Positions 1,407 through 23,761 are shown, counted from the first letter of the stretch. The stretch is DNA of 64,000 nt from Bacillota bacterium (GCA_013178305.1 JABLXB010000001.1:140203-204202), one strand, 5' to 3'. The notes: a model not told the origin generated them from the sequence alone. Numbers and translations are program-made.

Positions 1407-1414
1407 CTCCCCTA

Positions 1415-3759: not shown

Positions 3760-3919
3760 GGATTATCCCTCCTTGCTCGGTAATCTCGCGCCCCCGCAAA
3801 GCGCCCGTTACGGCTGTCCCCCGTGGCATTCCCCCACAGCACAGGCGCGCCCACGCACGGTTTGCCCCGGCTCCTGGAGCGCCGGTCCAAGGCGCCGCGC
3901 GGGGAATACCACGGTAAAT

Positions 3920-4711
3920 TCAGATGTAGGGCTTGCCGGTAACGGAAGCGGGGGCTGCACCCAGGGACCCGAGGAGCTTCAGGCCCACTTCGCGGGCCGC
4001 TATAAGCGCCTGGCGTACAGCGCCCGAGTCGCCGCTGATGAAAAGGATGACCTCGTTGGAGAAGCTGGTGCCCTTGGCTGGACTGGCATAACCAATGGCA
4101 TCCACATTGGCCGCCTTGACTGCCGTATCGGCCATGACAACGCCGATTCCGGCTGGAGCGCCTACAGTGAGGCCGAAGGCCTTGCCGATGGGGGCGCTAA
4201 AGGCCTTATTGCAGGCGAAGCTGGCGCGCGCGGTGTACTGGAACTCCAGGTGGCCGGCGTCGTTGGCGTAAACATCCCCAAAAGTGCGCTCCAGCTCTTT
4301 AAGGGCTACTTCCACCGCCCGCCGGGCATCGCTCACCTCTTCAGCGCCGAAGATGATGAGGCTGCCGTGGCCCGCCCCACCTTTAGTGTCACGCGCCAGC
4401 TGGATGCTGACGATTTCCGTGTTGGTGGCCTTGACCGCCTCGTCGGCCGCCATGATCTGCGGGCCGGCTCCGGTGCGGCCGCTCAAAACGCCGATGGAAC
4501 GGTACCTGGGGTCGATTCCCATGCGCTCGTGCACAGCGGGGTCAACGTTGGCAATGACGAGACCGATGGTCTCCCCCAGCGCAGTGCCGACAAATTCCGT
4601 GATGTTGCACGCGAAAGCCTTGAGTGGGACGGCCGGTTGCGCGGCCGGCGCTGCGGCCTCGGCTTTCTTAAGGACTTCCTGGACGATCTTTTCGACCAGT
4701 TCATCTTTCAT
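3920..4711 (-). CDS. pduB: BMC shell protein with tandem BMC domains (PduB-type)
   Basis: 263 aa with tandem BMC-domain composition, in the canonical position between pduA and pduC. Confidence 0.9.
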   Translation of the reverse strand: MKDELVEKIVQEVLKKAEAAAPAAQPAVPLKAFACNITEFVGTALGETIGLVIANVDPAVHERMGIDPRYRSIGVLSGRTGAGPQIMAADEAVKATNTEIVSIQLARDTKGGAGHGSLIIFGAEEVSDARRAVEVALKELERTFGDVYANDAGHLEFQYTARASFACNKAFSAPIGKAFGLTVGAPAGIGVVMADTAVKAANVDAIGYASPAKGTSFSNEVILFISGDSGAVRQALIAAREVGLKLLGSLGAAPASVTGKPYI

Positions 4712-4760
4712 CAGTCATTCGCACCTCCGTGCTGGATTGAGGATCGGGGGGTGACGAGCC

Positions 4761-5036
4761 TTATCCTTTAGGGAGGATCTTCTCCGTATCGGTGTGGGGC
4801 CGCGGGATCACGTGGACGGAAACAACCTCGCCAACCTTCTGCGCCGCCGCAGCGCCAGCGTCCGTAGCCGCCTTGACAGCACCCACGTCACCGCGTACCA
4901 TCACCGTGACCAACCCGGAACCGATCTTCTCGTACCCGATGAGCGTAACGTTGGCTGCCTTCACCATAGCGTCGGCCGCCTCAATGGCCCCTACCAGGCC
5001 CTTCGTCTCCACCATTCCCAGGGCTTCCAGCGCCAT
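4761..5036 (-). CDS. pduA: BMC-H hexameric shell protein
   Basis: 91 aa beginning [30 protein letters not shown], the classic BMC-domain signature. Confidence 0.9.
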
Positions 5037-5070
5037 CCTGTCTGTACCTCCTTCTCAAAATACTCTGACT

Positions 5071-5565
5071 CTATCCGGAGCCCCCGTCTTTTCCCCTGTG
5101 CTCCTCACCCCCTCCGTGTGCTTTCCCAGGGCCTGCTCTGAACGATTCCAGGTTGGCTGCCAGAGCAGCCAGACCATAACCGGTGAGAGCCGAGACGGTA
5201 AAGTACGGTTCCTCAACCCCGGCCAGCGCCAGCTCCTCGCTCGCCGCCTTAAGGCTTGCGCCCGGTACGTCGGTCTTCGTGATAACGCCCAGCACCGGCC
5301 GGCAGAAGGAGGACGCAAAACCCGGGGGCGGGCGAAAATGCGGGCCGGCCGCGGCAGTTACCCACAGGACCACGTCCGCCTGCTGTGCGGTAACGAGAAG
5401 CGCCCGGTAGAAACGCGGGAGTTCCAGGTACTCGCCAGGCGTGTCCAGGGCAGCGCCCGTGCACTCGATCATCTGGGTCTTAGCGGCTTTGCCGCCACAA
5501 CCCACCAGGGCGCGTATCAGCGTGGTCTTTCCGGCGCCGCGCGGCCCCACAACCAGGTAGCGCAT
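5071..5565 (-). CDS. pduV: EutP/PduV family small GTPase
   Basis: P-loop GPRGAGKTT and an LDTPGEYLE motif, as in Salmonella PduV/EutP; about 160 aa. Confidence 0.75.
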   Translation of the reverse strand: MRYLVVGPRGAGKTTLIRALVGCGGKAAKTQMIECTGAALDTPGEYLELPRFYRALLVTAQQADVVLWVTAAAGPHFRPPPGFASSFCRPVLGVITKTDVPGASLKAASEELALAGVEEPYFTVSALTGYGLAALAANLESFRAGPGKAHGGGEEHRGKDGGSG

Positions 5566-5566
5566 C

Positions 5567-5908
5567 TCACGAGCGGGTCAGCGGCGCAGCCTGGAAGCCG
5601 AGCTCGTGGCTGAGGAAAGTCGTTGCCTCCCGCAGGGCCGTCTCCACCGCGCTCACCGGCCCCGTGACCACCAGGGACCCCGTGAAGCGATCCACAAAGC
5701 CCACCTCGACCGCCGCCATCTTGACCGCACGGTCCGCAGCGACAATCGCCGCTTCGCTCGGCGTTATTGTCATGATGCCGATGGCCTGCCCCGCCGTGAG
5801 ACCCAGCTTCTCCGCCAGATTCGATTGCGGGTGGGCGATCAGATGAGCCAGGGTCACCTGTTTGCCAGGTACGTACTCCTGGACGACGCGCGGCTTCTCT
5901 TCCGGCAC
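5567..5908 (-). CDS. pduU: circularly permuted BMC shell protein (PduU/EutS type)
   Basis: 113 aa containing [20 protein letters not shown] and [16 protein letters not shown], near-identical motifs to PduU. Confidence 0.8.
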
Positions 5909-6092
5909 GCCCTTGCCCCCTCAGATTCGAGCGCTTGTTGCTTCGCCCTATCCGATCCCGTTCCTTGAACGCTTTTTGCCGGAAGGCGATGCCATGTTGT
6001 CCTTTCTTTACAGGTTGGCAGGGGGCCTGAGGGTATGTCTTTCGTGGAAGCAAGAGGGGAAGAAGGTGGCGGGTACGTTCTTGCGCTTTCTC

Positions 6093-7739
6093 TTACTTTT
6101 TTTGCCCGTCGGTGGAGCCCCACAATTCCTCGCGGGCCGCGCGGAACCGCTGTTGCCGGTACTCGCCGGGGCTCATGCCGAAGTGACGGCGGAAGATGCG
6201 GCTGAAATAGTTGGCCTCGGCGTAGCCTACCCTCTCCGCGATGGCGGCCACCGTGTCGTTGGTCCGCGCGAGGAGCTTCTTGCCCTCTTCCAGGCGTAGC
6301 TGTGTCAAGTAGTCCATAAAGTTAACCCCCTCCTTTTCCTTGAAGAGACGGCTGAGGTGGAAAGGGCTAAGGTGAACCTTCTTGGCCACGTCCTCCAGGG
6401 AGACGGATTCGCGGAAGTGTTCGTTTATGTAGCACTTAGCTTGCCCTATAACCTCGTTTCGAACGGCCGCTTGGCTAGCCTGGACCGCCGCAAGGCACCG
6501 TTCCAGCACGGACCAGACCCACTCTTCCACGGCGCGCGCCGTCCGCGCCGCGGCAAGCTCCTCCAACGAGGCACGCTGCAGTGCCGCCAGCACCTCAGGT
6601 CCTGCCCCGCCTTCCATGGCCGCGCGCGTAAGTGCACCCGCGAGCTCTAACGAGTGGGCACGAATAATCTCGGCCTGGCCCGCTGCAGCCGTGCTGAACC
6701 TTTGCCATAGCTCGCGAAATGCAGCACGGGCAGGCTCGGCCTCGGCCAACCGCATGTTCTGCACCAGGCGCATCTCCAGCTGGTAGGGATAGTCTGTGAT
6801 CTCACCGCCGGAGCGCTCCAGATCAGAACTCACAACCACCTCGTCCGAGCCAAAGAAGCTCCCGTACTGAACGGCACGCTGCGCAGCGGCGTAGGAGAGA
6901 GGTACCTCGGCCAAGTCCGCACAGGTCGTTCCCACACCCACCGTGACCGTGCAGGGAGTGGATGACGCCACCTCCGCCCGCAGCTTTTCAGCGAGCTCCC
7001 GTCCCTCCCGATTACCGCCCGACACCTGCGCCAAAACCAGGAACGTGTCGCTCGCCATGGGGGTCACCAGGGCCTGGGCGCCATTCTGCGCAGTGCGGAG
7101 CAAAGCCTCGTAGACGTCTTTCTTGAGTACCTGACGTTCCACTTCGCGCCTGGCCCGGGTAGCAGCCGCAAAGTGGTCGATATCAACCAGGAGCACCTGG
7201 TAAGGGCCGGAGGTCAAACCGAGGAACCTGGCCCGTTCCTCCATCTGGGCCAGGTCCGTACTGCGGTCGCTCACCAGGTCCAGCACCAGGCCAGTAGTGA
7301 TTAAAGGCATCATCGCCTCCAGTTCCCGGCGTAGCCGCTTGTCTTCCTCCTCCCGAGCTGTAGCCTCCGCCAACTCAAGGCACATCTTGTCTACCACACG
7401 CAGGATTTCCTGGGGCCGTGCCGGTTTGAGCAGGTAATCACTGGCCCCCAGCTTCAGGGCTCGTTGTGCGAAGTCGAATTCGTCGTAGGCCGTCAGCACT
7501 ACCACCTTCAACCCCGGCGCAGCCTCCTTTAAGGCCCGGGTAGCCTCGAGCCCGCTCATCCCCGGCATCTGAATGTCCATGAATACAATGTCGGGCTTCA
7601 ATTCCCGGGCCAGATTGAGACCTACGCGCCCCGAGCCAGCCTGGCCTACCACCTTTACCTGGGGCCGCTCACGCTCCAGGATAAAACGGATGGCCTCGCA
7701 CTCCAGAGGTTCGTCGTCTATCAGAAGCATCTTGACCAT
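6093..7739 (-). CDS. two-component response regulator with a CheY receiver, a long linker and an AraC-type HTH output (YesN-like)
   Basis: N-terminal MVKMLLIDDEP...DIVFMDIQMPGMSGLE receiver. C-terminal LEDVAKKVHLSPFHLSRLFK...AAIAERVGYAEANYFSRIFRRHFGMSPGEY AraC HTH. Confidence 0.85.
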   Translation of the reverse strand: MVKMLLIDDEPLECEAIRFILERERPQVKVVGQAGSGRVGLNLARELKPDIVFMDIQMPGMSGLEATRALKEAAPGLKVVVLTAYDEFDFAQRALKLGASDYLLKPARPQEILRVVDKMCLELAEATAREEEDKRLRRELEAMMPLITTGLVLDLVSDRSTDLAQMEERARFLGLTSGPYQVLLVDIDHFAAATRARREVERQVLKKDVYEALLRTAQNGAQALVTPMASDTFLVLAQVSGGNREGRELAEKLRAEVASSTPCTVTVGVGTTCADLAEVPLSYAAAQRAVQYGSFFGSDEVVVSSDLERSGGEITDYPYQLEMRLVQNMRLAEAEPARAAFRELWQRFSTAAAGQAEIIRAHSLELAGALTRAAMEGGAGPEVLAALQRASLEELAAARTARAVEEWVWSVLERCLAAVQASQAAVRNEVIGQAKCYINEHFRESVSLEDVAKKVHLSPFHLSRLFKEKEGVNFMDYLTQLRLEEGKKLLARTNDTVAAIAERVGYAEANYFSRIFRRHFGMSPGEYRQQRFRAAREELWGSTDGQKK

Positions 7740-8990
7740 TCAGATTCCCGCCTTGGCCGGCCGGTAGGGTAGGGTAAGGGTGATCTTGGTACCCTCACCA
7801 AACCGGCTCTGCACGTCCCGGTGATACCCTGCCCCAAAGTAATACTGCAGACGTTGGTGCACGTTGCTCATCCCCAGGCCAGTAAGGTGGCTGCGGCCCG
7901 AACGCTTGGACTCAAGACGAATGACCTCCTCGACCACCGTGGGCGGCATGCCTAACCCATCGTCAGCCACCTCAATGCGCACTCCCTCGCCTTCGCGCAG
8001 AGCCCGGATAACAAGGTGGCCGCCTTCCTCTTTCGGTTCCAAGCCGTGGACGATGGCGTTTTCTACCAGGGGCTGCAATGTAAGAAGCGGGATTTCCGAG
8101 TCCAAGCAGCTCTCGTCAATGTCCAGATCCACCTGAATGCGGTCACGAAAACGCGTCTGCTGAATAAGAAGGTAATGCCGGATGTAGGCGATCTCGTCGC
8201 GGAGCGTAGCCACCTGTCCGACCTTGCGCAGGCTACCGCGGAGAAGCTCAGCCAGGGCAAAGACCACCTCCTGCGTCTTGGCTGCTCCTTCCAAGAGGGC
8301 CAGACGGCTAATTGTGTTCAGCGTGTTGAAAAGGAAGTGCGGGTTGATTTGCGACTGCAATGCCTTGAGTTCAGCATCCTTTAGGGCCTTTTCCAGCTCG
8401 GCACGCGCCTTGACTTCCTCCACCAGACGGATATTCTGTTCGTTGAGCTGCTGCTGCACCATGCTGGCCACGCCCTTTTCAGCTATGTAGTTTGCGATTG
8501 TATACATAAGCTGGGCAGAGGCCATTACCTTGGCAAATAACATGGTGGGGATGCCTTCCATGAGTTGTTTTGACTCGGGGATCTGCGCGATGTTTAGCCC
8601 GGGTTTGGCAATCCGGTCTAAAGTGGCCATGGTCTCTTCCTCGACGAGTACCTGGCCAGCCATAATGGACCCGAGGTACTGCCCGTTCACAACTATGGGG
8701 GCGGCCAGGTCAACGAGCCCCATGTGACAGCGGTAAATGTAGGGACGGCCCTCGCGCACCGCCTCCAGCCCTGCGTGGGCATCGGACTGCTCACAGCCCT
8801 CGCGCCCCTTGGGATACTGGCGAACCCGGGCACAAAACGGGCGGAAGTTACTGTACCGTACTATGGGCTTCCCCTGGAAATCCACAATAATTGACGCAAG
8901 CCCCGTGGCATCGGAAAAGCGGTCCTGAATCTCCTGCAGCACAGAGACATCTACTGCGTCGCGCAGGTAAAAATGGCGCTGTAGAGCCAT
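7740..8990 (-). CDS. sensor histidine kinase with an N-terminal PocR sensory domain and C-terminal His_kinase/HATPase_c (LytS/YesM type)
   Basis: The N-terminus (DFQGKPIVRYSNFRPFCARVRQ...GCEQSDAHAGLEAVREGRPYIYRCHMGLVDLAAPIVVNGQYLGSIMAGQV) resembles the PocR ligand-binding domain. The H-box is NPHFLFNTLNTI. The C-terminal ATPase carries DDGLGM and LTGLGMSNV motifs. Confidence 0.85.
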   Translation of the reverse strand: MALQRHFYLRDAVDVSVLQEIQDRFSDATGLASIIVDFQGKPIVRYSNFRPFCARVRQYPKGREGCEQSDAHAGLEAVREGRPYIYRCHMGLVDLAAPIVVNGQYLGSIMAGQVLVEEETMATLDRIAKPGLNIAQIPESKQLMEGIPTMLFAKVMASAQLMYTIANYIAEKGVASMVQQQLNEQNIRLVEEVKARAELEKALKDAELKALQSQINPHFLFNTLNTISRLALLEGAAKTQEVVFALAELLRGSLRKVGQVATLRDEIAYIRHYLLIQQTRFRDRIQVDLDIDESCLDSEIPLLTLQPLVENAIVHGLEPKEEGGHLVIRALREGEGVRIEVADDGLGMPPTVVEEVIRLESKRSGRSHLTGLGMSNVHQRLQYYFGAGYHRDVQSRFGEGTKITLTLPYRPAKAGI

Positions 8991-10077: not shown

Positions 10078-10248
10078 TGTAAGAGCGGCAATCGTCACGG
10101 ATGACCGCGAGATCGTCAATGCGGCAGACGCGACGGGAGTCCAATTGCATAGGCTGCCGTAATGCCTGAGGGGCAGGGCTCAGTTCCAGCCCTGCCCCAT
10201 CACACCCAGTACGCTCAGAGGAGATCTCCAGAAGTATAAATTCACCTC

Positions 10249-11316
10249 CTATTGGAGCCTCGATATCAGTTCCTCGACCGAGGTCCCCTCCAAGCCCAAG
10301 GTTCGCAGGTTACGCCCCTCGGACCAGAGGTCGGTGCCCAACAGGTGAGAAACGAGGTGGATTACCGAGTCTATGATCGGAGTCGGCACACCCGCGATCC
10401 GGCCCATGGATGAATAGAAGACGAGACCCATGGGCACATCTTCGGTAAGGTACCGGTCGGTAAGGGTCTTGGGCCCTTTCATCTTGCGTCCGGCCTCGAT
10501 ACCTTCGTAACCAAACTGATCGATAAACACGCGCCCAACTTCTTCGGGTAATTCGCAATGGGGTTCGCCAAGGCCGAAAGCTTTCCTGACTTCCACCCGC
10601 TCCTGGTCCAGGGAACGCATGACTCTCCATACGGAGGGCGTCATTGCCTCCCTGTAGAGCCAGAACTCCCCCTGCGAGTATTCGATCCTGCTCGCGCTGA
10701 GCAGCGTCGGCACAGGGTGTATACAGGGATTGGTGTTATTGAGAGCGACGTCAAGTATGTTGTTTGCCGGGCACACTTCCGGATAGAGCCTCGCCAATAC
10801 CCTGCATGCTTTGTTGGTGCGGCTTGCAGGATACGCAGCGAATGGGTTAAAGACCGCGCGGATGTGGATTGCCACCTCATTCTGGTCCACCATCCTGGCT
10901 CCGTACGGGAGAGTGGACGTTTCACCTAAGGTGATGTCTTTCCTTATGCCCATCTCGGCCAATACCTTTCCGAACAGGTAAGAGCCGAAGCCCCCCGGAA
11001 GCAAGAACACGTATTGCCCGTCTTCAAGATATGGCCCGCACAGTCGCGCCATGGACTCCTGCGCGAAAGCGGGAACGATTACGAGGACGACTTCGGCTCC
11101 AGATAAAGCTTCCTGAGGGTTGTGGGTTGCAACGTGCAGCGGGGCCAAACCCTGCCGCCATATGCCGCTCAGCCTGAGTTGTTTCGTTTCCCGGATGGCT
11201 TTGAAAGACTCCTCGAACTGCGGCACCTGGAAGAGCCGCACCTCGTGACCGTCCAGCGCCATATGTGCGGCAGCGGCCACACCGCCGTGCCCTGCGCCGA
11301 GTATCGCTATCTTCAT
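10249..11316 (-). CDS. NAD(P)-dependent octopine/nopaline (opine) dehydrogenase family oxidoreductase, paralog 1
   Basis: N-terminal Rossmann motif MKIAILGAGHGGVAAA, a 355-aa length and a C-terminal domain typical of the Octopine_DH family; about 35% identical by eye to the 12740..13870 paralog. Confidence 0.75.
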   Translation of the reverse strand: MKIAILGAGHGGVAAAAHMALDGHEVRLFQVPQFEESFKAIRETKQLRLSGIWRQGLAPLHVATHNPQEALSGAEVVLVIVPAFAQESMARLCGPYLEDGQYVFLLPGGFGSYLFGKVLAEMGIRKDITLGETSTLPYGARMVDQNEVAIHIRAVFNPFAAYPASRTNKACRVLARLYPEVCPANNILDVALNNTNPCIHPVPTLLSASRIEYSQGEFWLYREAMTPSVWRVMRSLDQERVEVRKAFGLGEPHCELPEEVGRVFIDQFGYEGIEAGRKMKGPKTLTDRYLTEDVPMGLVFYSSMGRIAGVPTPIIDSVIHLVSHLLGTDLWSEGRNLRTLGLEGTSVEELISRLQ

Positions 11317-11345
11317 ACTTCTCCGCCTCCCTGCAGGCAGGATAG

Positions 11346-11390
11346 GCGCTACCCAATTCCATCTAACCAGGGATAGGGATTGGGTAGCGC
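11346..11390. other. perfect 12-bp inverted repeat (GCGCTACCCAAT / ATTGGGTAGCGC) with a 21-nt loop, between the membrane-protein gene and dehydrogenase 1
   Basis: Read directly from the sequence. No downstream U-tract on the transcribed (minus) strand, so it is not a canonical terminator. Confidence 0.5.
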
Positions 11391-11411
11391 GGGTTCATGT
11401 GGCTCACCGGG

Positions 11412-12548
11412 TTACTTGACCTCGAGGGTCTTGGAACGACCGATCTTGACCAACCCGATCGTCAGGACGGGAATCACATGAGCGACAAAGAATCCCCACG
11501 AAATAGACCCGTATCCTTTTGCGATGAGGTTGATCAGCCCGAACCTCGACATTCCGATGCTCAATACCGCCATTACCAGCGCAATGACGGCCCGCAGCGG
11601 GCTCGTCAAGGTCTGGCCCTTCTCACGAAGCGTTGCGGCCACGCGCTCGTTCACGCCGTGGATGAAGCCTATGCCGGTCTCTATCAGCGTCCCGAAGAGC
11701 GTAATCTCATAGGCTGCGAGGATTAGCACCGAGCCGAGCCTGGTCAGCGCGAAGAGAGCAGGTATCTCCGATTTGAGGATCTCCGGATAACCGCCAACCA
11801 CGACCACGTAGAAGAAGAATGCAGGCAGTATGGCTATGAGGGAGCTCAGGATACCGGAGACCACCGCTTCGCTGCGTTTCTCTATGCTGCCCAGGGTGAA
11901 CAGAACGGCAGGGATGCATCCAAGGTTGTAGAGTCCGTACTTAAATCCGGCCAGCGCCCAACCTGGTTTAACCTCACCCGTGCCAAAGGCCTGCGCTATC
12001 GAAGGGCCAAACTTCGACAGTCCCGCTACCAGGAAGACAATGTATACCGCATACAGCGCGAACGACCACCAGGACATATACGTTTCGATCGCTTTGCTTC
12101 CATAGTACGCGAGGAAGACCACCCCGACGAGCATGCCGACGACTCCGGCGAGATAGGGTATGCCGAACGTATCCCTCAGGATGGATCCGGACGCCGCTCC
12201 CACCACTGCGAGAACCAGGAACAGCAGGAGGATGTAGAGAACCTCGTACACGGGCCAAAACGGCCCCAATAGCTCTTTGAAGAACCCACGGTAGTCGTAC
12301 TGCTTGAAGACCCGGGCAAACTCGTACGAGGCCGAAAGGACGATAGCCCACATTGTGGCGGTGACCAGGAACATGCCCAGCAGACCGCCGATAGGACCAT
12401 AGTTGAGGAAGAACTCTACCAGCTCACGGCCTGTGCCATATCCACCGGCTATGACTACGGATTGAAAAACGAATCCGGGAAGCAGGTAGACGCGAAATAA
12501 TCTCGAGTCGAGGAACGCATTGAGACGGAACCCCTTGTTACCGGTCAT
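11412..12548 (-). CDS. polytopic membrane protein, permease-like (YkvI / amino-acid-transporter-like family suspected)
   Basis: 378 aa with about 10-11 hydrophobic segments. Family assignment is tentative. Confidence 0.6.
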   Translation of the reverse strand: MTGNKGFRLNAFLDSRLFRVYLLPGFVFQSVVIAGGYGTGRELVEFFLNYGPIGGLLGMFLVTATMWAIVLSASYEFARVFKQYDYRGFFKELLGPFWPVYEVLYILLLFLVLAVVGAASGSILRDTFGIPYLAGVVGMLVGVVFLAYYGSKAIETYMSWWSFALYAVYIVFLVAGLSKFGPSIAQAFGTGEVKPGWALAGFKYGLYNLGCIPAVLFTLGSIEKRSEAVVSGILSSLIAILPAFFFYVVVVGGYPEILKSEIPALFALTRLGSVLILAAYEITLFGTLIETGIGFIHGVNERVAATLREKGQTLTSPLRAVIALVMAVLSIGMSRFGLINLIAKGYGSISWGFFVAHVIPVLTIGLVKIGRSKTLEVK

Positions 12549-12687
12549 TCACGCACACCTCCTTGGGATTCTGGGGGTTCAGGGTTTTCCACCGGCCGGG
12601 GATCTGCCGAAAGGGTAAGGCAGACCTGATACTCACTCTCGTTCGTCAACCTCGGGCCGCTATCGGCAGATTACCCCGGCCTTCAGT

Positions 12688-12709
12688 TCTCCAGCGTGTC
12701 TCCAGCGTG
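12688..12709. repeat. exact tandem duplication of an 11-bp unit (TCTCCAGCGTG x2) in the intergenic region between dehydrogenase 2 and the permease gene
   Basis: Read directly from the sequence. Confidence 0.6.
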
Positions 12710-12739
12710 GGTCCTGTATCGTCTGGATACCTGAAACAC

Positions 12740-13870
12740 CTACATACCATCGACGTACTCGACGATCTGGCTCGGGGTCATGTCCGCAATACCCAGCTGC
12801 TTCAGTGTCCTACCCATCTGCCAGAAGTTCTGGTTACAGACTGCAGACCCTATGTACACGATGCTGTCGGTGACTGGAGTCGGCACGCCCAGTTTGTCAC
12901 CGAGCTGGGATACCGGCACCAACCCGAAGGGCAAGTCCTCCGTGATGTACCGGTCGTAGATAGTGTGAGGACCTGCGATGGAGGCGATGACTCCAGCCGT
13001 GTCGAATGGGGCCTGGAACGCCACGCCCATTATGCTGGTGGTCGCCCGGAAATCCCGATCCTCGTACTGCAGGACTTCCAGCCCCATGGCCTTGGCTACG
13101 CTCTCGACTTCGATGAAGATGTGACGGATGACCCTCGCTACGGCCTCCGTTATGCCCTCCCTGTACATGTTGAAATCCCCGCGGGAATACTGGATGCGTC
13201 CCGTATTAAGCAGGGACCCCGGTGGGTGAACGATCGGGTTCGGGTTGCAAAAGCCGGCGACAAGCACGTTACGGCACGGCTGGAGGCAGGGGTACGCCAA
13301 CTTCAGGACATCTACAATCTGCGCCGATTTCTTGCCCGGCAAGGAGGCCAGGAGTACAAGCGGGGCGGCGCAAAGGAGGTTCACGACTCCGGCCTCTTCC
13401 AGCCGTGTCCCGTAAGGCAAGGTATTTGCTTCCGCGATGGTAACATTCTTCTTGATACCGCTCTCCTTCAACAAGTGAGCCAGGCGCAGTGAACCGTAGT
13501 CACCAGCCCATACCACCACGGCCTGACCATCCCTGAGGTGAGGGAGGAGCTCCTTGAAGAAGGTATCGTGACCGGTGGCCGGGATAACCACGTTGATCCA
13601 CTCGACGCCTTCAAGAGCCTCCGCCATGTCGGTCGTGACCTTCGCGATCTTTGCCTTGCCGGTCCGTCCCATGCCCTTGAGCTCGATCGTCTTCGATTCG
13701 AGAACAGGCGCGAATTTGGGGCCTTTCGCGAACTCGGGCGTCTCGTACAGATGGACAGTGTAGCCAGCAAGCGTCAAATCCGCCGCCATCGTCTGGGCGC
13801 CGTTACCCCCGCCGAGAACGGCAATCGGTTTGTTTAACACCGCATCACTCCCTTTCCGAATAGTGGACAC
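12740..13870 (-). CDS. NAD(P)-dependent opine dehydrogenase family oxidoreductase, paralog 2
   Basis: Carries KPIAVLGGGNGAQ (Rossmann) and the same C-terminal domain as paralog 1. Start is GTG 13870 (AAGGA RBS) or the in-frame GTG at 13843 (AAGGGAG RBS). Confidence 0.75.
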   Translation of the reverse strand: MSTIRKGSDAVLNKPIAVLGGGNGAQTMAADLTLAGYTVHLYETPEFAKGPKFAPVLESKTIELKGMGRTGKAKIAKVTTDMAEALEGVEWINVVIPATGHDTFFKELLPHLRDGQAVVVWAGDYGSLRLAHLLKESGIKKNVTIAEANTLPYGTRLEEAGVVNLLCAAPLVLLASLPGKKSAQIVDVLKLAYPCLQPCRNVLVAGFCNPNPIVHPPGSLLNTGRIQYSRGDFNMYREGITEAVARVIRHIFIEVESVAKAMGLEVLQYEDRDFRATTSIMGVAFQAPFDTAGVIASIAGPHTIYDRYITEDLPFGLVPVSQLGDKLGVPTPVTDSIVYIGSAVCNQNFWQMGRTLKQLGIADMTPSQIVEYVDGM

Positions 13871-13896
13871 CCGAATCCTTACGTGTCAAACCCGAT

Positions 13897-13912
13897 TGCA
13901 AGGAGAATGCCA
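13897..13912 (-). promoter_or_regulatory. sigma-54 (-24/-12) promoter TGGCAT-TCTCC-TTGCA upstream of dehydrogenase paralog 2
   Basis: The minus strand reads TGGCATTCTCCTTGCA with GG and GC separated by exactly 10 nt. This is about 15-45 nt upstream of the candidate start codons. The adjacent gene encodes a sigma-54 activator. Confidence 0.6.
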
Positions 13913-14108
13913 TAAAAGGAATGCTGTAAGAAGCATGGTATTAACATGGTTGTGCAAGCACAACCGAATGAAAATCGAAGAAGGGGGTGTAACAGGTTGT
14001 TACAATCCCCTTCTTCATTCGCGTTCTTGAGTCGCTCGCGACCCAATGTAACCCCTTGTGACATGTCACGCGAACGTGTTACATAGGGCGTGATTCACCA
14101 GGCGTAAT

Positions 14109-15866
14109 TCAGTCTTCCAGCAGCCTATAGATGGTCTGGCGCGACACTCCCAACAGATTCGCGGCTCTCCTCTTATTGCCCCCTGTCAGTTTCAGCGTCT
14201 CCATGACCGCTTTCCTATTGGTATCCATTTGCTCCTTTTGGCTGATGAATTTACGTCCCGCAGGATGCAGTCCTGACACAAGCAAATCGTCCTCGGTGAT
14301 GTACTTCCCTTTACAGACGCAGAGAGCCCTGGATAGCGTGTTCTCCATCTCCCTGGCATTACCCGGCCAGCTGTGGAGCGACAACACCCTCCTGGCTTTG
14401 GGGTCTATTCCCTCTACCTCCTTGTTGATCGCTTTGCCCAGTTTCTTCAAGAAGGAATCGGCCAGAACCTGGATATCCTCTCTCCTCTCTCTCAGAGGAG
14501 GTATGCTAATATAAAGTACCTTAAGTCTGAAGTACAGGTCGGCCCGGAACTTCCCGTCCCTGACCATCTCTTCAAGGTCCCGGTTGGTTGCCGCGATTAC
14601 CCTGACATTAACGAAGAAGGGTTTACTTCCACCGATTCTGGTAATGCTCGTGGTTTCGAGAACCCTTAAGAGTTTGGCCTGCAAGTGGATCGGCATTTCG
14701 CTTACTTCATCGAGAAACAGGGTCCCACCGTTGGCGAGCTCGAACTTTCCTGGTTTGCCACCTTTTCTGGCGCCGGTGAATGCCCCCTCCTCGTAGCCAA
14801 ACAGCTCACTATCGATCAGTTCGTTGGGGAAGTTGGCACAGTTGACGGCAACAAAGGGCTCCGACTTCCGGGCGCTGTAATTGTGGATGGCCTGGGCAAA
14901 GAGCTCTTTACCGGTTCCACTCTCGCCCTGTATTAATATGTTCGCTGTACTCTGCGAAAAGGTTTTTGCCAGGGATATCCTCTCTTTTATTGCCGGGCTT
15001 TCGCCGATTATGTCGTCAAATCTGAACGTCGCTTCATACCCTGCAATGGTGTTGGCCAATTTCCGGGAACGTTTCATGCTTCTGAATATATCAATGGCGC
15101 CAATGATGTTCCCCGAGTCATCAAAGACGGGGTAACCGGAGTTATACAGATGCATCGCATTGCCTTTGAACTTCAAAAAATACTCATAATCCACGATGCT
15201 CGTTTTCTTATTCAGGATTTTGAGCAAGAAGGAATTCGTGACGAATTCGTCAATGCTTCTGCCTATGAATTCTTCCCGTGGCGTTTTTGTCATCTCGCAG
15301 CACATTTTGTTAACGTAAACGAATCTGCCGTCTTTATCGCACGCGGAGATTCCATCTTCAATATGATCAAGGAAGCGCACAAGGAGCTCATATTTCTTTT
15401 CGGCGTTGTACTTGTTAACCACTGCTGCAATGTCATTGATGTTCTTAGCGGTGTTCACCAGGAATTTTGGGATGTCGTCCTCTTCTTTGTCTGTTGCGAA
15501 GCACAAATAGTAATCTAAACCCTCTTCTTCCCCCGATTTATGATAAAAGTACAAGATGACCTTCCCAGGCTCATTTAAATCCCTGACGAATTTCGCGACT
15601 GTATCGGAATCAATCTTCGGCTTATACGATATGTCGAAGCATTTCCCTACCAATTCCTTCAACTGCGGTTTATCTTTAGCATGTACGGCAAGGATCGTGA
15701 AACTGCGGTCCAGGAGTAGAAGGCAAGAGTCTTTCCCACACATGGTCATGAGGCAGGATAGACCAAAACAGTCTGTCAATACGCGTCTTCCTGTATCAAT
15801 GGCCCTTTCCACAACATCCTTGGCTATCGCTGAGTAGAGAAATCGAATGACAACATCGTTGAGCAT
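14109..15866 (-). CDS. sigma-54-dependent transcriptional activator with N-terminal sensory/PAS region, AAA+ sigma-54 interaction domain and C-terminal Fis-type HTH (RocR-like)
   Basis: Contains GESGTGKELFAQAIH and GAFTGA sigma-54 interaction motifs. The C-terminal HTH reads RRAANLLGVSRQTIYRLL. The gene is about 45% GC against about 65% in its neighbours. Confidence 0.85.
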   Translation of the reverse strand: MLNDVVIRFLYSAIAKDVVERAIDTGRRVLTDCFGLSCLMTMCGKDSCLLLLDRSFTILAVHAKDKPQLKELVGKCFDISYKPKIDSDTVAKFVRDLNEPGKVILYFYHKSGEEEGLDYYLCFATDKEEDDIPKFLVNTAKNINDIAAVVNKYNAEKKYELLVRFLDHIEDGISACDKDGRFVYVNKMCCEMTKTPREEFIGRSIDEFVTNSFLLKILNKKTSIVDYEYFLKFKGNAMHLYNSGYPVFDDSGNIIGAIDIFRSMKRSRKLANTIAGYEATFRFDDIIGESPAIKERISLAKTFSQSTANILIQGESGTGKELFAQAIHNYSARKSEPFVAVNCANFPNELIDSELFGYEEGAFTGARKGGKPGKFELANGGTLFLDEVSEMPIHLQAKLLRVLETTSITRIGGSKPFFVNVRVIAATNRDLEEMVRDGKFRADLYFRLKVLYISIPPLRERREDIQVLADSFLKKLGKAINKEVEGIDPKARRVLSLHSWPGNAREMENTLSRALCVCKGKYITEDDLLVSGLHPAGRKFISQKEQMDTNRKAVMETLKLTGGNKRRAANLLGVSRQTIYRLLED

Positions 15867-16047: not shown

Positions 16048-17262
16048 CTAGTTCTTCTCGAGGGACTTGACGATCTGCATCGTGTCCCGCGCAATCGCGA
16101 GTTCCTCGTTCGTGGGCACGACGAGCACCTTCACGCGAGAATCCGGCGTAGAGATCTCCTTTTCCCTGGCGGGGCTTTCGTTCAGCGCCTTGTCGACCTT
16201 GATCCCAAGGACGCTCAGCTTGGAGCATACGTGCCAGCGCACCAGCGTCGAATTCTCGCCGATCCCGCCGGTGAACACGAGCACGTCGAGCCCGTCCATC
16301 GCGGCTGCGTAGGCGCCGACGTATTTGCGCAGCCTGTAGCAGAAGATGTCGAACGCCCGTTTCCCGTTCTCGTTCCCCTCGAGCATCGCCAACTCGATGT
16401 CGCGCATGTCGTGGGATATCGCCGAAAGGCCCTTCATGCCGCTCCGCTTGTTGAGGAGGTCGTTCACTTCCTTGACCGACATCTTCAGGTCCACGACCAT
16501 GTGATAAGTCAGTGCGGGGTCGATGTCACCGCACCTGGTCCCCATCACCAGGCCCTCGAGCGGCGTATAGCCCATGCTCGTGTCGACGGACTTGCCGCCG
16601 TCGACGGCGGTGATACTGCACCCATTGCCGAGGTGCGCGGTTATGGTCTTGAGATCCGCCGGTTTCCTGCCGGCGATTGCCGCGGCGCGTTCGGAAACGT
16701 ACTTGTGCGATGTCCCGTGGAAGCCGTAGCGCCTGATCCTGTGCTCCGTGTACATTGAATAAGGTATGGGGTACAGAAAGGCGTGCGGCGGCATGGTGGT
16801 GTGGAACGCCGTGTCGAAAACCCCGCACTGCGGCACACCGGGCAACAGATGCTCGGCCGCCTCGATTCCGAGAAGGTTGGGCGGATTGTGCAACGGCGCA
16901 AGAGGTATGTTCTTCTCGAGGGCTTTCTTGACCGCTGGAGTAATCAGCATTGAACCCGCAAACTCCTCGGCGCCATGGACAACGCGGTGGCCCACGGCGT
17001 GTATCTCGGAAAGGCTCCTGACGGCCCCCACCTCGGGGTCCTGCATAGTGTCGAGGATGATCTTGATGGCGACCGAGTGGTTCTTGACCGGCAGCACGTC
17101 GCGCTTCTTCACGCCCCTCTGAGTCTGGTGTGACAGGATCCCGTCGTCCATACCCACGCGTTCGATCTGCCCCTTGCAGAGAACAGACTCATTCGTCATG
17201 TCCAACAACTGGTACTTGACGCTCGAGCTCCCGCAGTTCAGCACAAGCACGTTCATGTCCAT
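16048..17262 (-). CDS. pduW: acetate/propionate kinase (PduW/AckA)
   Basis: 404 aa beginning MDMNVLVLNCGSSSVKYQL, with VGHRVVHGAEEF and LVFTGGIGENS motifs; directly downstream of pduL. Confidence 0.85.
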   Translation of the reverse strand: MDMNVLVLNCGSSSVKYQLLDMTNESVLCKGQIERVGMDDGILSHQTQRGVKKRDVLPVKNHSVAIKIILDTMQDPEVGAVRSLSEIHAVGHRVVHGAEEFAGSMLITPAVKKALEKNIPLAPLHNPPNLLGIEAAEHLLPGVPQCGVFDTAFHTTMPPHAFLYPIPYSMYTEHRIRRYGFHGTSHKYVSERAAAIAGRKPADLKTITAHLGNGCSITAVDGGKSVDTSMGYTPLEGLVMGTRCGDIDPALTYHMVVDLKMSVKEVNDLLNKRSGMKGLSAISHDMRDIELAMLEGNENGKRAFDIFCYRLRKYVGAYAAAMDGLDVLVFTGGIGENSTLVRWHVCSKLSVLGIKVDKALNESPAREKEISTPDSRVKVLVVPTNEELAIARDTMQIVKSLEKN

Positions 17263-17305
17263 ACCTCCATACTCCGGATGTGTTGTGGGTTTGTCTGGTC
17301 CCGGG

Positions 17306-17944
17306 TCACTTGCATCCCATTACCAGGACGACCGTATCACCCGTGGACAGGAGGGCTGCGTTTGCCTCATCCGTGTCGATGTGACACTCGAGGGCGTACT
17401 TGGGGCTGACGCGAACCAGCACGTCGTCGAAGGTTGTCTTCCGATCACCCTTGTCGACTCGAATACTGACCACGTCCCCATCCTTGCACCCGAACCTTGC
17501 AGCCTCGGCTGGGCTCATGTGGATGTGGCGCATGGCCAGTATGCACCCTTCCTTGAGCCTGATCTCCCCTTTCGGGCCTTTCACAACGAGGCCCGCGGAA
17601 CCGTGAATACTGCCCGATTCCCGCAAGGGCGCCTCCACACCGAGCTTGAAGGCGTCGGACCTCGAGACCTCGATTTGAGTCTTGTCTCTGACCGGGCCCA
17701 TAACCCTGACGCCTTCGAAGGAACCCTTAGGACCGGCAATCGTTACGGTTTCAGCACAGGCATACTGGCCGGGCTGGCCCAGGTCGCGAAACTTCGTTAG
17801 CTCGTGGCCCTCGCCGAAGAGCGTGCAAAGATCGTGCTGGCTGAGGTGAATATGCCTGTTGGATACCCCTACAGGTATTCCCTGAGGGGGCGCCTGGTTG
17901 CTCAAGCGCTCAGCCTCCTTATAGAGTTTGCGCGGCGGTCGCAA
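17306..17944 (-). CDS. pduL: phosphate propanoyltransferase PduL
   Basis: 212 aa containing GIPVGVSNRHIHLSQHDL and a duplicated PduL fold (AMRHIHMSPAEAARFG). Confidence 0.85.
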   Translation of the reverse strand: MRPPRKLYKEAERLSNQAPPQGIPVGVSNRHIHLSQHDLCTLFGEGHELTKFRDLGQPGQYACAETVTIAGPKGSFEGVRVMGPVRDKTQIEVSRSDAFKLGVEAPLRESGSIHGSAGLVVKGPKGEIRLKEGCILAMRHIHMSPAEAARFGCKDGDVVSIRVDKGDRKTTFDDVLVRVSPKYALECHIDTDEANAALLSTGDTVVLVMGCK

Positions 17945-19560: not shown

Positions 19561-21906
19561 TCAGCGGGACGGCCGCCGGAGCGTGCCCGAGGGGTTGTAT
19601 CGCCTGAGGCGCAGGGAGTTGGTCACCACCGACACGGAACTCGCCGCCATGGCCGCACCCGCGATTATCGGGCTCAGCTTGCCCAGCGCGGCCACGGGTA
19701 TTCCGACGGTATTGTATACGAACGCCCAGAAAAGGTTCTGCTTGATCGTCCTCATCGTCGCCCTGGACAGCCGGATGGCGCGGACAACGCCCCTCAGGTC
19801 CCCGCTTATCAGGGTGATCCCGGCAGCCTCCATGGCGACGTCCATCCCCGTCCCGATCGCGATGCCTATATCCGCGGTGGCCAGCGCGGGGGCGTCGTTT
19901 ATGCCGTCCCCCACCATGGCCACGATCTCGCCGCGGCGCTTGAGCTCCTCGACCTTACCCGCCTTGTCCCCGGGGAGCACCTCCGCGATGACCTCATCGA
20001 TCCCGGCCTGTGCCGCTATGGCGCGCGCGGTGCGGCGGTTGTCCCCCGTAAGCATCATCACCTTGACGCCCATCGAACGGAGTTCATCCACCGCGGCGCG
20101 GGCTTCGTCCTTCAGCGTGTCGGCCACGGCCACGACTCCGGCCGGCGCCCCGTCCATCGCGAGGACGATCGCGGTCTTGCCCTGCTCCTCGAGCGCGATC
20201 ACGTGGGGCTCGAGCGGTTCCATGCCTATCCCCGCATCGCGCATGAGCGCGCGATTACCCGCCAGCACCTGCCGCGCGGTGGCGTTTGACGAGACCGTCG
20301 CCCTGACGCCCTGGCCGGGTATGGCCACGAAGTCCACAGGTTCTCGAACCTCGATACCCTGTGAACGGGCGTATTCCACGATGGCTACCCCGAGCGGGTG
20401 CTCGGACCCCCGCTCCGCGGAGGCGGTAAGTTCGAGCAGTGTGGAGCGGTCCAGCGGTTCGAGCGTGACGACGTCCGTGACGGAAGGCTGCCCGCGTGTC
20501 AGAGTGCCGGTCTTGTCCAGCACCACGACCGTCACCTTGTGGGCGCGCTCCAGGTGCTCTCCTCCCCTGATGAGGATACCCATCTCCGCGCCGCGCCCTG
20601 TGCCCACCATTATCGCGGTCGGAGTGGCGAGACCCAGCGCGCACGGGCACGCGATCACGAGCACCGCGGTCATCGACAGCAGAGACCTCGTGACGTCCCC
20701 CGTCACGATGAACCACGCGACAAACGTCACCGCGGCAACGCCCAGGACCGCCGGAACGAAGTACGCCGCCACGGTATCGGCGATGCGCTGGATGGGGGCT
20801 TTCGACCCCTGCGCCTCCTCGACGAGGGCGATGATCCTGGCGAGCGCCGTGTCGCGGCCGACCTTTTGCGCTTCGAACGTAAACGAGCCGTGCTTGTTGA
20901 TAGTACCCCCGATTACCTCGCTCCCCGGTGACTTCTCGACGGGTATGCTCTCGCCGGTGAGCATGCTCTCGTCAACCGCGGAATGGCCGCTCACCACTAC
21001 CCCGTCGACAGGTATCCTCTCTCCCGGCCTCACAAGGACGTGGTCGCCCGGGCGCACCTCCTCGACCGGGACCTGCACCTCCTGGCCGCCCCTGATCACC
21101 GTCGCGCGGCGTGGCTGCAGGCCCATGAGCTTCTTTATCGCCTCCGAGGTGCGGCCCTTGGCGATCGCCTCCAGAAGCTTGCCCAGCACGACCAGCGTGA
21201 GTATCGTTGCGGACGCCTCGTAGTACATGTGGCCTTCGATGAAGAACGTGGTGGCCACGCTGTAGAAGTAGGCGGCCGACGTGCCCACTGCCACGAGCAC
21301 GTCCATGTTGGCGGCCCCGTGAATCAGGCTGAGCCATCCCCGCCTGTAGAACTGCCAGCCCACGATGCCCTGCACGAGGGTACCGAAGGCGAACTGCAGC
21401 CTGGCGTCCTCCAGGAAACGGAATACGTGGACGCCCAACAGGTGGCCGAACATCGGAAGAATCAAGGGGACCGTGAGAGCGGCCGAAAAAGCGAATGTCG
21501 CAGTCTGGATTCTGATCTCTCGCTCGCGCTCGGCCCGCTCGGCGTCGGCGGGGCTCCTCGACGGCTCTCCTGTCTCCCCGCGCGCCGCGGCGCCGGCCTC
21601 TCCCGAGGGCCGGTCCGCGTCCTGCGCCCTGTAGCCGAGCTTGCGCACCGACTCGAGCAGTGGCTCCAGCGGCGTGCCTGGCAAGACGTCTACCGAAGCC
21701 CGCTCTGTAGCGAGGTTGACCACCGCCCCGATCACGCCGGGCTGCCTGTTGAGCTCCTTTTCGATCCTCGCTGCGCAGGAAGCGCAGGACATCCCGCCTA
21801 GCAGGATGTTCAGCCGTTCCGTGCGCACCTTCGCCACGCCGGCCTCGCCGTCACGGACCACTTCGTCTCCGCCGGTTGTTGCGTGTGTGCGTTCCATACG
21901 GAACAC
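19561..21906 (-). CDS. copA: copper-translocating P1B-type ATPase
   Basis: N-terminal heavy-metal-associated motif [12 protein letters not shown], the CPC transmembrane motif, DKTGTLT phosphorylation site and a GDGINDAP hinge. Confidence 0.9.
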
Positions 21907-22893: not shown

Positions 22894-23718
22894 CTAGGTT
22901 GTACCTGATCCACTTGGCGCCTGAGCCGGAGGTTCCTCCTGGTCCTGCGCGGGGTCATCAGGGTACTCCTCGAGCGGCTGGTCCCCCACTACCACAGTAC
23001 CCGAGTCATTGTCGAAATCGACTTCGCAGCCGAGCGCCTGAGCGATGAACCTGAGGGGGATGACCGTCCTGCCGTTGATCGACTTCGGGGGGACGTCCAG
23101 CTCGACCGGCTGCTCATTCACCAGCGCGGTCCTCGTTTCGAGCTGCAACCTGACTACCGTGTCACCCTTGGAGATGACTACCGTGCGGGTCTCGGCCTGC
23201 CACTCGACCGTCGCGCCCAGCGCTTCGACGAGGGCACGGACGGGGACCAGCGTCCTGCCGTCCTTGATGACGGGCGGCACGTCGAACGAGGGCTTCTTCC
23301 CGTTGACGAACACTTTGAGCGACCGGTCACCTTTCTGCGTGTAGACCCTGTACATGTTCGTATACAGGTTACGGTTCCGCGGATCGATCTCGATCGCCTT
23401 TTGCAGCGCCTCGAGGGTTTGGGCGGTATCCCCGGCGTCCTCGTGCATCCGGGCAAGTTCTTTCAGCGCGTGAACGCTGTCCGGGTGCTCGGAGAGGTAC
23501 TTCTTTAGCCCCTCCAGGGCTGCGGCGCGGTTCACGGCCGCTTTGATCATCTCCTTCACCTGAGCACGATCCCTTGCCTTTTCCCGGTCCCTCTCCTGCG
23601 TCCTGTCCTGCTCCGCATCGGAGGAGTTGGTCTGCGGGGCCGCAGCTGCAGCCGACCCCGCAACCAACACGGTGACGAGTATCACCGCCAGCACCGCAAA
23701 GCCAGTCGTCCTCTTCAT
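22894..23718 (-). CDS. secreted protein with signal peptide, TPR-like helical region and a C-terminal copper-amine-oxidase N-terminal-like (stalk) domain; paralog A
   Basis: Start at MKRTTGFAVLAVILV (GAGGAGG RBS). The C-terminus SLKVFVNGKKPSFDVPPVIKDGRTLVPVRALVEALGATVEWQ is about 80% identical to the 24622..25681 product. Confidence 0.7.
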   Translation of the reverse strand: MKRTTGFAVLAVILVTVLVAGSAAAAAPQTNSSDAEQDRTQERDREKARDRAQVKEMIKAAVNRAAALEGLKKYLSEHPDSVHALKELARMHEDAGDTAQTLEALQKAIEIDPRNRNLYTNMYRVYTQKGDRSLKVFVNGKKPSFDVPPVIKDGRTLVPVRALVEALGATVEWQAETRTVVISKGDTVVRLQLETRTALVNEQPVELDVPPKSINGRTVIPLRFIAQALGCEVDFDNDSGTVVVGDQPLEEYPDDPAQDQEEPPAQAPSGSGTT

Positions 23719-23761
23719 AGTCCCATACCTCCTCGTTCTTGATCCCGGCGGTCTCACTCAT

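Follow-up and report, generated by a model that had tools for sequence, protein, structure and literature searches.

A predicted sigma-54-controlled cluster of two opine-dehydrogenase-family enzymes and a LeuT/APC-type carrier in a Bacillota bacterium

The function of NAD(P)-linked opine dehydrogenases has been worked out in three settings: crown-gall synthases, invertebrate anaerobiosis, and metallophore synthesis. To our knowledge, hardly anything is established about what such enzymes do in free-living bacteria, and for anaerobes information is essentially lacking. Here we describe a group of four genes in a 64,000-nucleotide (nt) stretch of DNA from a Bacillota bacterium (GCA_013178305.1 JABLXB010000001.1:140203-204202), referred to below as the window. 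The genes lie head-to-tail on the minus strand at positions 10249–15866, and encode a sigma-54 activator, a first dehydrogenase (DHA), a membrane carrier, and a second dehydrogenase (DHB), at coordinates unchanged from a first-pass annotation of this DNA. The enzyme family is known, and the example as such is fairly ordinary; what is new is the occurrence of NAD(P)-opine dehydrogenases in a predicted sigma-54-controlled transporter operon of anaerobes. In the literature, we found no paper that joins an opine dehydrogenase to sigma-54 or to the carrier family named YkvI. We propose that the cluster is an inducible operon for the import and oxidative cleavage of an opine-like secondary amine, a reading to which we give even chances.

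The best match of solved structure for both enzymes is ArODH (also CENDH), the N-(1-D-carboxyethyl)-L-norvaline dehydrogenase of Arthrobacter sp. 1C (PDB 1bg6), which has the same two-domain build and shares with both of them the residues His202, Arg292, Tyr293, Asp297, and Asn198. ArODH is a soluble bacterial NAD-linked enzyme whose strain grows on opine-type compounds; reportedly, such a compound had also been used to isolate this Arthrobacter strain, as Asano et al. are said to have described in 1989. Unlike ArODH, DHA and DHB fall into other subclades of the family tree, and the specificity loop, NPGATGG in ArODH, reads WAGDY-G in DHA and LPGGF-G in DHB, one residue shorter in both clades. 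A second group of related enzymes, the hot-spring mODH-43 to -582, derives from uncultured and partly thermophilic bacteria and lies at a similar distance: identity to ArODH and to mODH-44, which clusters with ArODH, is 35% for DHB and 29% for DHA, values that are approximate (as for the other reference enzymes), the sequences having been transcribed from a machine-read supplement and hand-corrected against the 1bg6 alignments. Mutagenesis has shown that positions 111 and 198 of ArODH set the amino-acid preference, Ala plus Asn going with hydrophobic and Arg plus Gly with acidic amino acids; the mODHs, with Arg111 and Gly198, show a preference for acidic amino acids, and neither a physiological role nor a gene context is reported for them (Telek et al., 2024, PMC10787698). 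DHA and DHB differ from the mODHs by an Asp (DHA) or Gly (DHB) in the loop, and by Asn198 in both.

The opine systems of Agrobacterium (Ocs/Nos synthases, occ/noc catabolic regions) are organised alike, in that an N-carboxyalkyl amino acid is served by a dedicated regulator and a transporter together with an enzyme that cleaves the C-N bond. Ocs is a member of the same Pfam family and about 25% identical to DHA and DHB (22% for scallop octopine dehydrogenase, OcDH). Agrobacterium employs FAD-dependent opine oxidases, ABC import, and control of the LysR or LacI type. In contrast, the locus described here combines a proposed NAD(P)-linked cleavage with a secondary carrier and predicted sigma-54 control, in a genome of strict-anaerobe type. 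Its elements are the following (lengths in amino acids, aa, or nt):

14109–15866, minus strand: activator, a sigma-54 enhancer-binding protein, 585 aa
14047–14063, unstranded: distal palindrome, putative upstream activating site, TGTCACAAGGGGTTACA (TGTCACA-AGG-GGTTACA)
13988–14004, unstranded: proximal palindrome, putative upstream activating site, TGTAACAACCTGTTACA (TGTAACA-ACC-TGTTACA)
13897–13912, minus strand: predicted sigma-54 (-24/-12) promoter, TGGCATTCTCCTTGCA (TGGCAT-TCTCC-TTGCA)
12740–13840, minus strand: DHA, opine-dehydrogenase-family enzyme, 366 aa; the open reading frame (ORF) reaches GTG 13870
12549–12739, minus strand: DHA–carrier spacer with a long hairpin, 191 nt
11412–12548, minus strand: secondary carrier of predicted LeuT/APC fold, 378 aa; homologues named 'YkvI' by JGI
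10249–11316, minus strand: DHB, opine-dehydrogenase-family enzyme, 355 aa
10170–10198, minus strand: GC-rich hairpin GGGGCAGGGCT-ggaactg-AGCCCTGCCCC, seen in the sequence 51 nt past the DHB stop

Against Octopine_DH (PF02317; cut-off 30 bits), the Pfam family for the C-terminal helical domain of opine dehydrogenases (EC 1.5.1.x), DHB (10249–11316) scores 134 bits and DHA (12740–13870) 125 bits, and the matches span nearly all of the 150-position profile. Both proteins align over their full length with 1bg6 (DHB, E 5e-56, residues 3–348; DHA, E 9e-39, residues 13–369), followed among PDB entries by scallop octopine dehydrogenase in either case. The Rossmann motif GxGxxG/A is present as ILGAGHGG in DHB and VLGGGNGA in DHA, both aligning with residues 7–110 of 1bg6. 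Residue conservation was followed in 233 homologues aligned with the reference enzymes, using ArODH numbering. His202, Tyr293, and Asp297 are kept in 118 of 118 members of the DHA clade, and Arg292 in 117 of them; among the 23 closest homologues of DHB, His202, Arg292, and Asp297 are invariant and Tyr293 is replaced by Phe in three, while Asn198 is kept in both clades. On these sequence features, and speaking at the level of the family, DHA and DHB are with high confidence true opine-dehydrogenase-family proteins. The first-pass annotation, which had placed two genes of this family around a membrane-protein gene, all on the minus strand, is borne out in this respect.

The same annotation had considered that the two proteins could instead group with glycerol-3-phosphate dehydrogenases or ketopantoate reductases. 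Mis-annotated housekeeping reductases of this kind, together with a chance promoter match, would be in keeping with weak N-terminal Rossmann matches to NAD_Gly3P_dh_N and ApbA (23–31 bits). However, the best scores against the NCBIfam models GpsA and PanE are 22–33 bits, versus cut-offs of 141–489, and are confined to residues 1–112; the C-terminal Octopine_DH domain reaches at least 125 bits, and the promoter is conserved in relatives and other lineages (see below). We regard the probability of this explanation as practically nil.

A link to the synthesis of opine metallophores by CntM-type enzymes (with products like staphylopine or pseudopaline) had also been raised at first, and found no support. 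The staphylopine (CntM), pseudopaline, and yersinopine dehydrogenases share with DHA and DHB the Octopine_DH label, i.e. the Pfam family, and the chemistry of reductive condensation, and the window does contain metal genes: a P-type metal ATPase (19561–21906), and CbiMQ-type cobalt-transporter genes with an ABC ATPase (31059–33460). On the other hand, pairwise similarity is not detectable (the lowest BLASTP E against CntM of S. aureus is 0.085), the metal genes form units of their own at a distance of several kb, and the cluster is without metal-uptake genes, a metal-regulator site, or a metallophore importer or exporter. As the first-pass annotation had stated, there is no nicotianamine-synthase-like (CntL) partner: none occurs in the cluster, in the scanned neighbours, or among the genes scanned at 1–36.7 kb and 9 further large ORFs at 37.6–63.7 kb, a scan that left out small ORFs and about 15 ORFs of at least 90 aa. 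Metallophore synthesis thus appears very improbable to us.

DHA and DHB are 35% identical to each other over about 357 residues. The phylogenetic placement that had been called for was carried out as a neighbour-joining tree (without bootstraps), in which both lie inside the opine-dehydrogenase family, in two separate clades, with ArODH and mODH-44 in a third. Because the two clades are as far from each other as from the Arthrobacter and hot-spring enzymes, DHA and DHB are, by this tree, two old lineages and not the outcome of a recent duplication; of their initial description as 'paralogs', the common family remains and recent duplication has to be dropped. The DHB ortholog group is small, with about 23 clusters at 49% identity or more.

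The variable residue of the specificity loop is Asp in 105 and Asn in 13 of the 118 DHA-clade members (W-A-G-D-Y-G), and Gly in 22 of the 23 closest DHB homologues (L-P-G-G-F-G), at a position where ArODH has Ala111 and the hot-spring enzymes Arg. Since these loop residues differ, the predicted amino-acid pockets of DHA and DHB clearly differ as well. To read a substrate charge from the loop Asp of DHA by the Arg111 rule would be a weak analogy, and the arginine-using enzymes Ocs and OcDH, which have no acidic residue at that loop position, speak against such a rule. The second beta-strand ends in Glu in 113 of 118 DHA-clade sequences. This is typical of NAD(H) enzymes and suggests that DHA uses NAD(H); in the 23 closest DHB homologues, the residue is Gln in 14 and Glu in 9, so that the cofactor preference is ambiguous.

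Both clades are uncharacterised and at most 29–35% identical to enzymes of known substrate. This, and a specificity loop that is shorter than that of ArODH and of other sequence, would also be compatible with a different secondary amine or imine being imported by the carrier, such as cyclic imino acids, N-alkyl amino acids, or glycation products (carboxymethyl- or carboxyethyl-lysine). The same may be said of the best regulator model, which is that of the proline-reductase regulator PrdR, and of related clades that adjoin folate one-carbon (C1) enzymes or B12-mutase-like genes (both described below). We nevertheless hold such a substrate to be rather improbable, given that Arg292, Tyr293, and the His/Asp dyad are almost fully conserved; from OcDH structures, Arg292 is presumably the residue that binds the carboxylate of the 2-oxo acid. 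Moreover, carboxymethyl- and carboxyethyl-lysine would still involve opine-type chemistry, so this alternative overlaps with the cleavage of an opine-like amine proposed here.

The 378-aa membrane protein encoded between the two enzymes has no match in Pfam, NCBIfam, or the PDB sequences. An AlphaFold2 model built on 50 homologues (predicted local distance difference test score, pLDDT, 88.1; predicted template-modelling score, pTM, 0.87) displays 10–11 membrane helices, and a Foldseek comparison with the PDB returned LeuT/APC-fold carriers only, with probability 1.00, the top matches being AdiC, AgcS, MhsT, BasC, LAT1, and ApcT (query-normalised TM 0.60–0.70). As modelled, the carrier has the LeuT/APC amino-acid-transporter fold, which agrees with the transporter-like protein of the first-pass annotation. 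Several of its 2635 homologues, at 55–73% identity, are listed as 'uncharacterized membrane protein YkvI' in JGI; the YkvI (COG3949) label comes from JGI names only, the curated Pfam and NCBIfam models giving no match. Close homologues are found in many contexts, next to aminotransferases, proteases, and, in one locus (L003), an Octopine_DH gene. For the YkvI family, the sole experimental hint comes from PH0137 of Pyrococcus horikoshii, which is induced together with an amino-acid racemase by D-allo-isoleucine and whose import function was proposed, not shown (PMC13628549). PH0137 resembles the present carrier in its approximately 10 transmembrane helices and in its co-regulation with one amino-acid-converting enzyme, but the partner there is a pyridoxal-phosphate racemase under an FFRP repressor, and the likeness is one of family name, not of sequence comparison.

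The gene directly upstream of DHA had been taken for a PAS/AAA+/Fis activator, and the domain analysis agrees. The protein consists of an N-terminal sensor region of about 155 aa, a PAS domain, an AAA+ sigma-54 interaction domain, and a Fis-type helix-turn-helix (HTH), with Pfam scores of 236 bits for Sigma54_activat, 53 bits for PAS_9, and 33 bits for HTH_8, in addition to an AAA lid; the GAFTGA loop is present in the translation as GYEEGAFTGARKGG. For the N-terminal 160 aa, a Pfam search gave no match even with the threshold relaxed to E 10, and a single-sequence model of the sensor region (pLDDT 33.6) is unusable. Firmicute sigma-54 activators of this build, such as RocR, PrdR, AcoR, and BkdR, typically drive amino-acid or other catabolic operons. 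PrdR and RocR share with the window activator the combination of PAS, AAA+, and Fis-HTH, and the position of the gene directly upstream of the controlled catabolic operon. PrdR (NF041552) is also the best NCBIfam model; however, with 406 bits versus a cut-off of 795 the window activator attains about half of what is required, and the model covers residues 153–583 only, leaving the N-terminal 150 residues outside.

The predicted promoter TGGCATTCTCCTTGCA is the sole exact match to TGGCAY-N5-TTGCW in the 64 kb, where 0.10 would be expected by chance (9 of 100 shuffles contain at least one), and the DHA start codon follows 57 nt downstream. Two palindromes of the form TGTAACA-N3-TGTTACA are located about 85 bp (proximal, exact) and 145 bp (distal, 2 mismatches) upstream of the promoter; with up to 3 mismatches, there are 3 such sites in the window, a number reached in none of 100 shuffles. 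In the related loci L097 and L098, the promoter is found at the same place (TGGCATCATCCTTGCG), the proximal palindrome is invariant, and the distal position holds a perfect palindrome (TGTAACAATCTGTTACA), whereas the rest of the spacer has diverged. Because the promoter and both palindromes are conserved against this diverged background, we read the palindromes as putative activator sites feeding a sigma-54 promoter, and the pattern is as expected for such an arrangement. The proximal palindrome is situated inside a GGGG...CCCC stem with a T-run (13971–14012), which could serve as terminator of the activator gene as well.

A second sigma-54 activator, of the LevR type (Sigma54_activat plus PRD), is encoded in the window at 51717–54026 (minus strand), divergent from a phosphotransferase-system (PTS) operon of the mannose/sorbose family at 54643–57630 (plus strand), with a -24/-12-like site, CGGCATGTCTCTTGCA, between them at 54094–54109 (plus strand). 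This second activator and site suggest that the genome uses sigma-54.

Relatives of DHB were sought by scanning one genome per species, and the window proteins were mapped onto the 80 loci returned; throughout this text, loci from these and other searches are cited by number, and genes at fetched loci were called by a longest-ORF script. In the closest relative (L097, about 80% DNA identity), the gene order and the activator are the same, the proteins are 79–89% identical, and the activator fragment present is 79% identical to the window activator. More distant lineages contain the following:

L022, Dethiobacter metagenome-assembled genome (MAG): activator, DHB (49%), carrier (51%), DHA (64%)
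L023, Desulfovibrio MAG: activator, DHB, carrier
L024, Moorellales MAG: activator, DHB, and an SSF-family carrier instead of the YkvI-like one
L020, uncultured Clostridia MAG: divergent carrier and DHB, with a class V aminotransferase nearby

A -24/-12 promoter is located between the activator and DHB in L022 (TGGCATAATTTTTGCA), L023 (TGGTATAATTTTTGCA), and L024 (exact match). The activators of these three loci are mutually orthologous, with a Cys-rich N-terminus that is possibly of GAF type. The window activator was considered as a further ortholog and rejected, as the sensor region is not shared. By these comparisons, the combination of a DHB-type enzyme with a carrier under predicted sigma-54 control recurs as a design, with different sensors. 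The near-consensus promoter of the first-pass annotation is accordingly unique in the window, well placed, and conserved in the relative and in three other lineages, and the genome-context comparison which that annotation recommended finds the module again in L097, L022, and L023, and partly in L024. A metagenome scan for further copies of the module gave short contigs only, for close DHB relatives, and a plasmid collection contained nothing above 38% identity.

The neighbourhoods of other homologues bear on the direction of the reaction. Among DHB orthologs at about 70% identity, a LivK-type binding protein adjoins in L017, and a GntR regulator, an amidohydrolase, and an SBP_bac_5 ABC binding protein in L018; in L019, a DHB ortholog follows a class I/II aminotransferase. 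A DHA homologue in L016 is placed between a GntR gene and a TRAP transporter with a class IV aminotransferase. Four loci of Synergistota (L072, L076, L077, L091) comprise GntR, TRAP, a dehydrogenase homologue, L-serine dehydratase, and an OCD/mu-crystallin enzyme, an arrangement that recalls opine catabolic regions, and a plasmid of Cytobacillus firmus carries a CdaR-type regulator, an SSF carrier, and a dehydrogenase. Binding-protein-dependent ABC and TRAP systems import only. Since homologues adjoin such systems, aminotransferases, and GntR or CdaR regulators, uptake and breakdown are favoured.

The opposite direction must be weighed against this. In a reductive role, pyruvate and amino acids would be joined to opines with NAD(P)H, as a redox sink or to provide a compatible solute, with the carrier exporting the opine or supplying the amino acid. 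The opine dehydrogenases of invertebrates are established to serve this purpose, and the organism seems to live by anaerobic fermentation, as a pdu microcompartment, acetate kinase, and lactate/malate dehydrogenase are encoded nearby. The assays of the hot-spring enzymes, furthermore, were all performed in the reductive direction (PMC10787698). Yet a sigma-54 activator that senses a ligand and is dedicated to one operon is what substrate-induced catabolic operons usually have, the homologues are tied to the import-only transporters and aminotransferases described above, and redox balance is already covered by lactate and acetate routes. A reductive role therefore seems unlikely to us, while retaining some weight.

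Several considerations count against import and oxidative cleavage. Opine dehydrogenases are reversible with an equilibrium on the reductive side, and their best-known physiological roles (invertebrate anaerobiosis, Ocs/Nos, CntM) are reductive; secondary carriers can export too, and we know of no opine source in this habitat. Co-transcription over the 191-nt spacer is assumed, and no rpoN gene was seen within the 64-kb window, which is a part of the genome. Many DHA orthologs are solitary genes, and in L021 (Desulfovibrionaceae) a DHB ortholog (about 52%) stands directly after mfd in a housekeeping string; hence, the enzymes are not always tied to a transporter.

Under the proposed import and cleavage, the activator would sense a small molecule through its N-terminal and PAS region, bind both palindromes (TGTAACA-N3-TGTTACA), and, at the expense of ATP, open the promoter at 13897–13912 for sigma-54, giving a single transcript that spans DHA, carrier, and DHB. 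The compound imported by the LeuT/APC-fold carrier would resemble an amino acid, and would most likely be an N-(1-carboxyalkyl)-amino acid, i.e. a secondary amine of the opine type. Each dehydrogenase would then use NAD(P)+ to oxidise the C-N bond, and the resulting imine would hydrolyse to a 2-oxo acid (probably pyruvate) and a free amino acid, both entering fermentation. As the amino-acid pockets differ, DHA and DHB would probably serve two different opines or two moieties. In this scheme, we infer co-transcription, import, oxidative direction, and substrate class alike. Overall, the observations of the first-pass annotation are confirmed and its interpretation is partly supported: of its two options for the compound, 'taken up and cleaved' is the one best backed by the homologue neighbourhoods, and 'synthesised' is kept as a rival.

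Considerably more speculative, and in our estimate with a slight chance of being correct, is the idea that DHA and DHB act in sequence on a compound with two secondary amines (nicotianamine, metallophores of the staphylopine or pseudopaline type, or another 'double opine'), or, more modestly, that opine-like secondary amines are widely fermented under anaerobic conditions by subsurface Bacillota, Desulfobacterota, and Chloroflexota, a process so far unrecognised of which the cluster would be a marker. The predicted pockets of DHA and DHB differ, and in two Bacillota lineages far apart from each other both enzymes stand around this carrier. If the sequential double-opine reading is true, opine-type metallophores would gain a first route of anaerobic catabolism.

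The loci compared include further associations of related dehydrogenases. The housekeeping string of L021 reads glmU-like, prs, L25, pth, mfd, DHB, and then a 2-oxoacid:ferredoxin oxidoreductase, without transporter or activator, and in the related metagenome contigs L102 and L103 a large same-strand gene (at least 890 aa) lies just upstream of DHB. A clade about 43% identical to DHB adjoins formate-tetrahydrofolate ligase in L025, L026, L029, L031, L034–L036, and L068, with FolD also adjacent in 5 loci (L026, L031, L034, L036, L068); its hosts are Syntrophorhabdus, Syntrophaceae, and other Thermodesulfobacteriota, and the association hints at a link to glycine or C1 metabolism. Of the 80 genome loci, 23 place a more distant opine-dehydrogenase-like clade (35–39%, within L052–L095) beside a B12-binding-domain protein with a length of about 545 aa (for example L052, 11167–12798; L053, 5171–6604; L059, 2383–3408). 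PF13941 MutL (mutase-reactivase-like) accompanies this clade in 6 loci, 4 of them among the 23, and an ATP-grasp enzyme in 12 loci, 11 of them among the 23. These loci come from Atribacterota, Bacillota, and Anaerolineae, and the association is conserved and apparently unstudied.

Regarding gene ends and spacers, the DHA start is most likely GTG 13840, because the public annotation and homologues of 363–366 aa agree on it and a ribosome-binding site, GGAAAGGGAG, lies 7 nt upstream. Public records hold exact copies of all three structural proteins (uncultured 'Firmicutes bacterium'; tags HPY55_00780, HPY55_00785). The hairpin at 10170–10198 is likely the end of the operon, common to a convergent DUF2148 gene; a terminator scan did not call it, since no T-run follows. 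The DHA–carrier spacer folds at -72 kcal/mol (z = -2.2). In L097 and L098 it measures 76 nt and has no hairpin, so about 115 of its 191 nt are a lineage-specific insertion, which is probably dispensable. The spacer as a regulatory element was rejected, the hairpin being absent in the closest relative and without a second copy in the window, and an Rfam search for riboswitches or other known RNAs gave no match (sub-threshold RAGATH-23 only, 22 bits versus 92.6).

The cluster is flanked on both sides by parts of a propanediol-utilisation (pdu)-type locus, at 3–8990 and 16048–17944, all on the minus strand:

3–845, minus strand: diol dehydratase reactivase
876–1406, 1415–2062 and 2092–3759, minus strand: small, medium, and large subunits of a B12 diol/glycerol dehydratase
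3920–4711, minus strand: bacterial microcompartment (BMC) shell protein
6093–7739, minus strand: AraC-type response regulator
7740–8990, minus strand: PocR-sensor histidine kinase
16048–17262, minus strand, opposite flank: acetate/propionate kinase
17306–17944, minus strand, opposite flank: PduL-type phosphotransacylase

The GC content is 0.48 for the activator gene (0.61 at third codon positions, GC3), versus 0.56–0.59 for the structural genes and about 0.60–0.64 for the flanks. The lower GC of the cluster, with pdu parts on both sides, suggests a possible insertion into the pdu locus, and the atypical GC of the activator gene suggests that it was acquired separately. A connection of the cluster with acetate kinase, phosphotransacylase, and carbamate kinase (e.g. 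octopine to arginine and pyruvate) was considered and rejected, because two of these genes, those for the PduL-type transacylase and the acetate/propionate kinase, are part of the pdu locus; no arginine deiminase or ornithine transcarbamylase was seen.

Elsewhere in the window, three proteins (22894–23757, 24622–25827, 46642–50061) have stalk-like copper-amine-oxidase N-terminal domains, the last of them also bearing BNR/sortilin repeats, and a sigma-70 region-2 factor, possibly of the extracytoplasmic-function type, is encoded with an RsgI-like anti-sigma factor at 23838–27175. A DUF3644 protein (57756–59090) and the next small ORF show a GC3 of 0.60, versus 0.83–0.88 in their neighbours; the region 57756–59459 is possibly another foreign insertion.

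The two clades together comprise hundreds of protein clusters from Bacillota, Chloroflexota, Desulfobacterota, and other phyla. For these uncharacterised enzymes the locus may offer a physiological frame, consisting of a sensor-activator, a carrier, and two enzymes with predicted different pockets, and it may give a functional hint for the unstudied carriers of the YkvI type. Both clades are also candidate biocatalysts for reductive amination, having loop residues unlike those of every enzyme characterised so far. It has been argued that the opine-like class of metabolites is under-annotated (PMC13192845). If the substrate is found, this cluster would point to a turnover of opine-like secondary amines in anoxic habitats.

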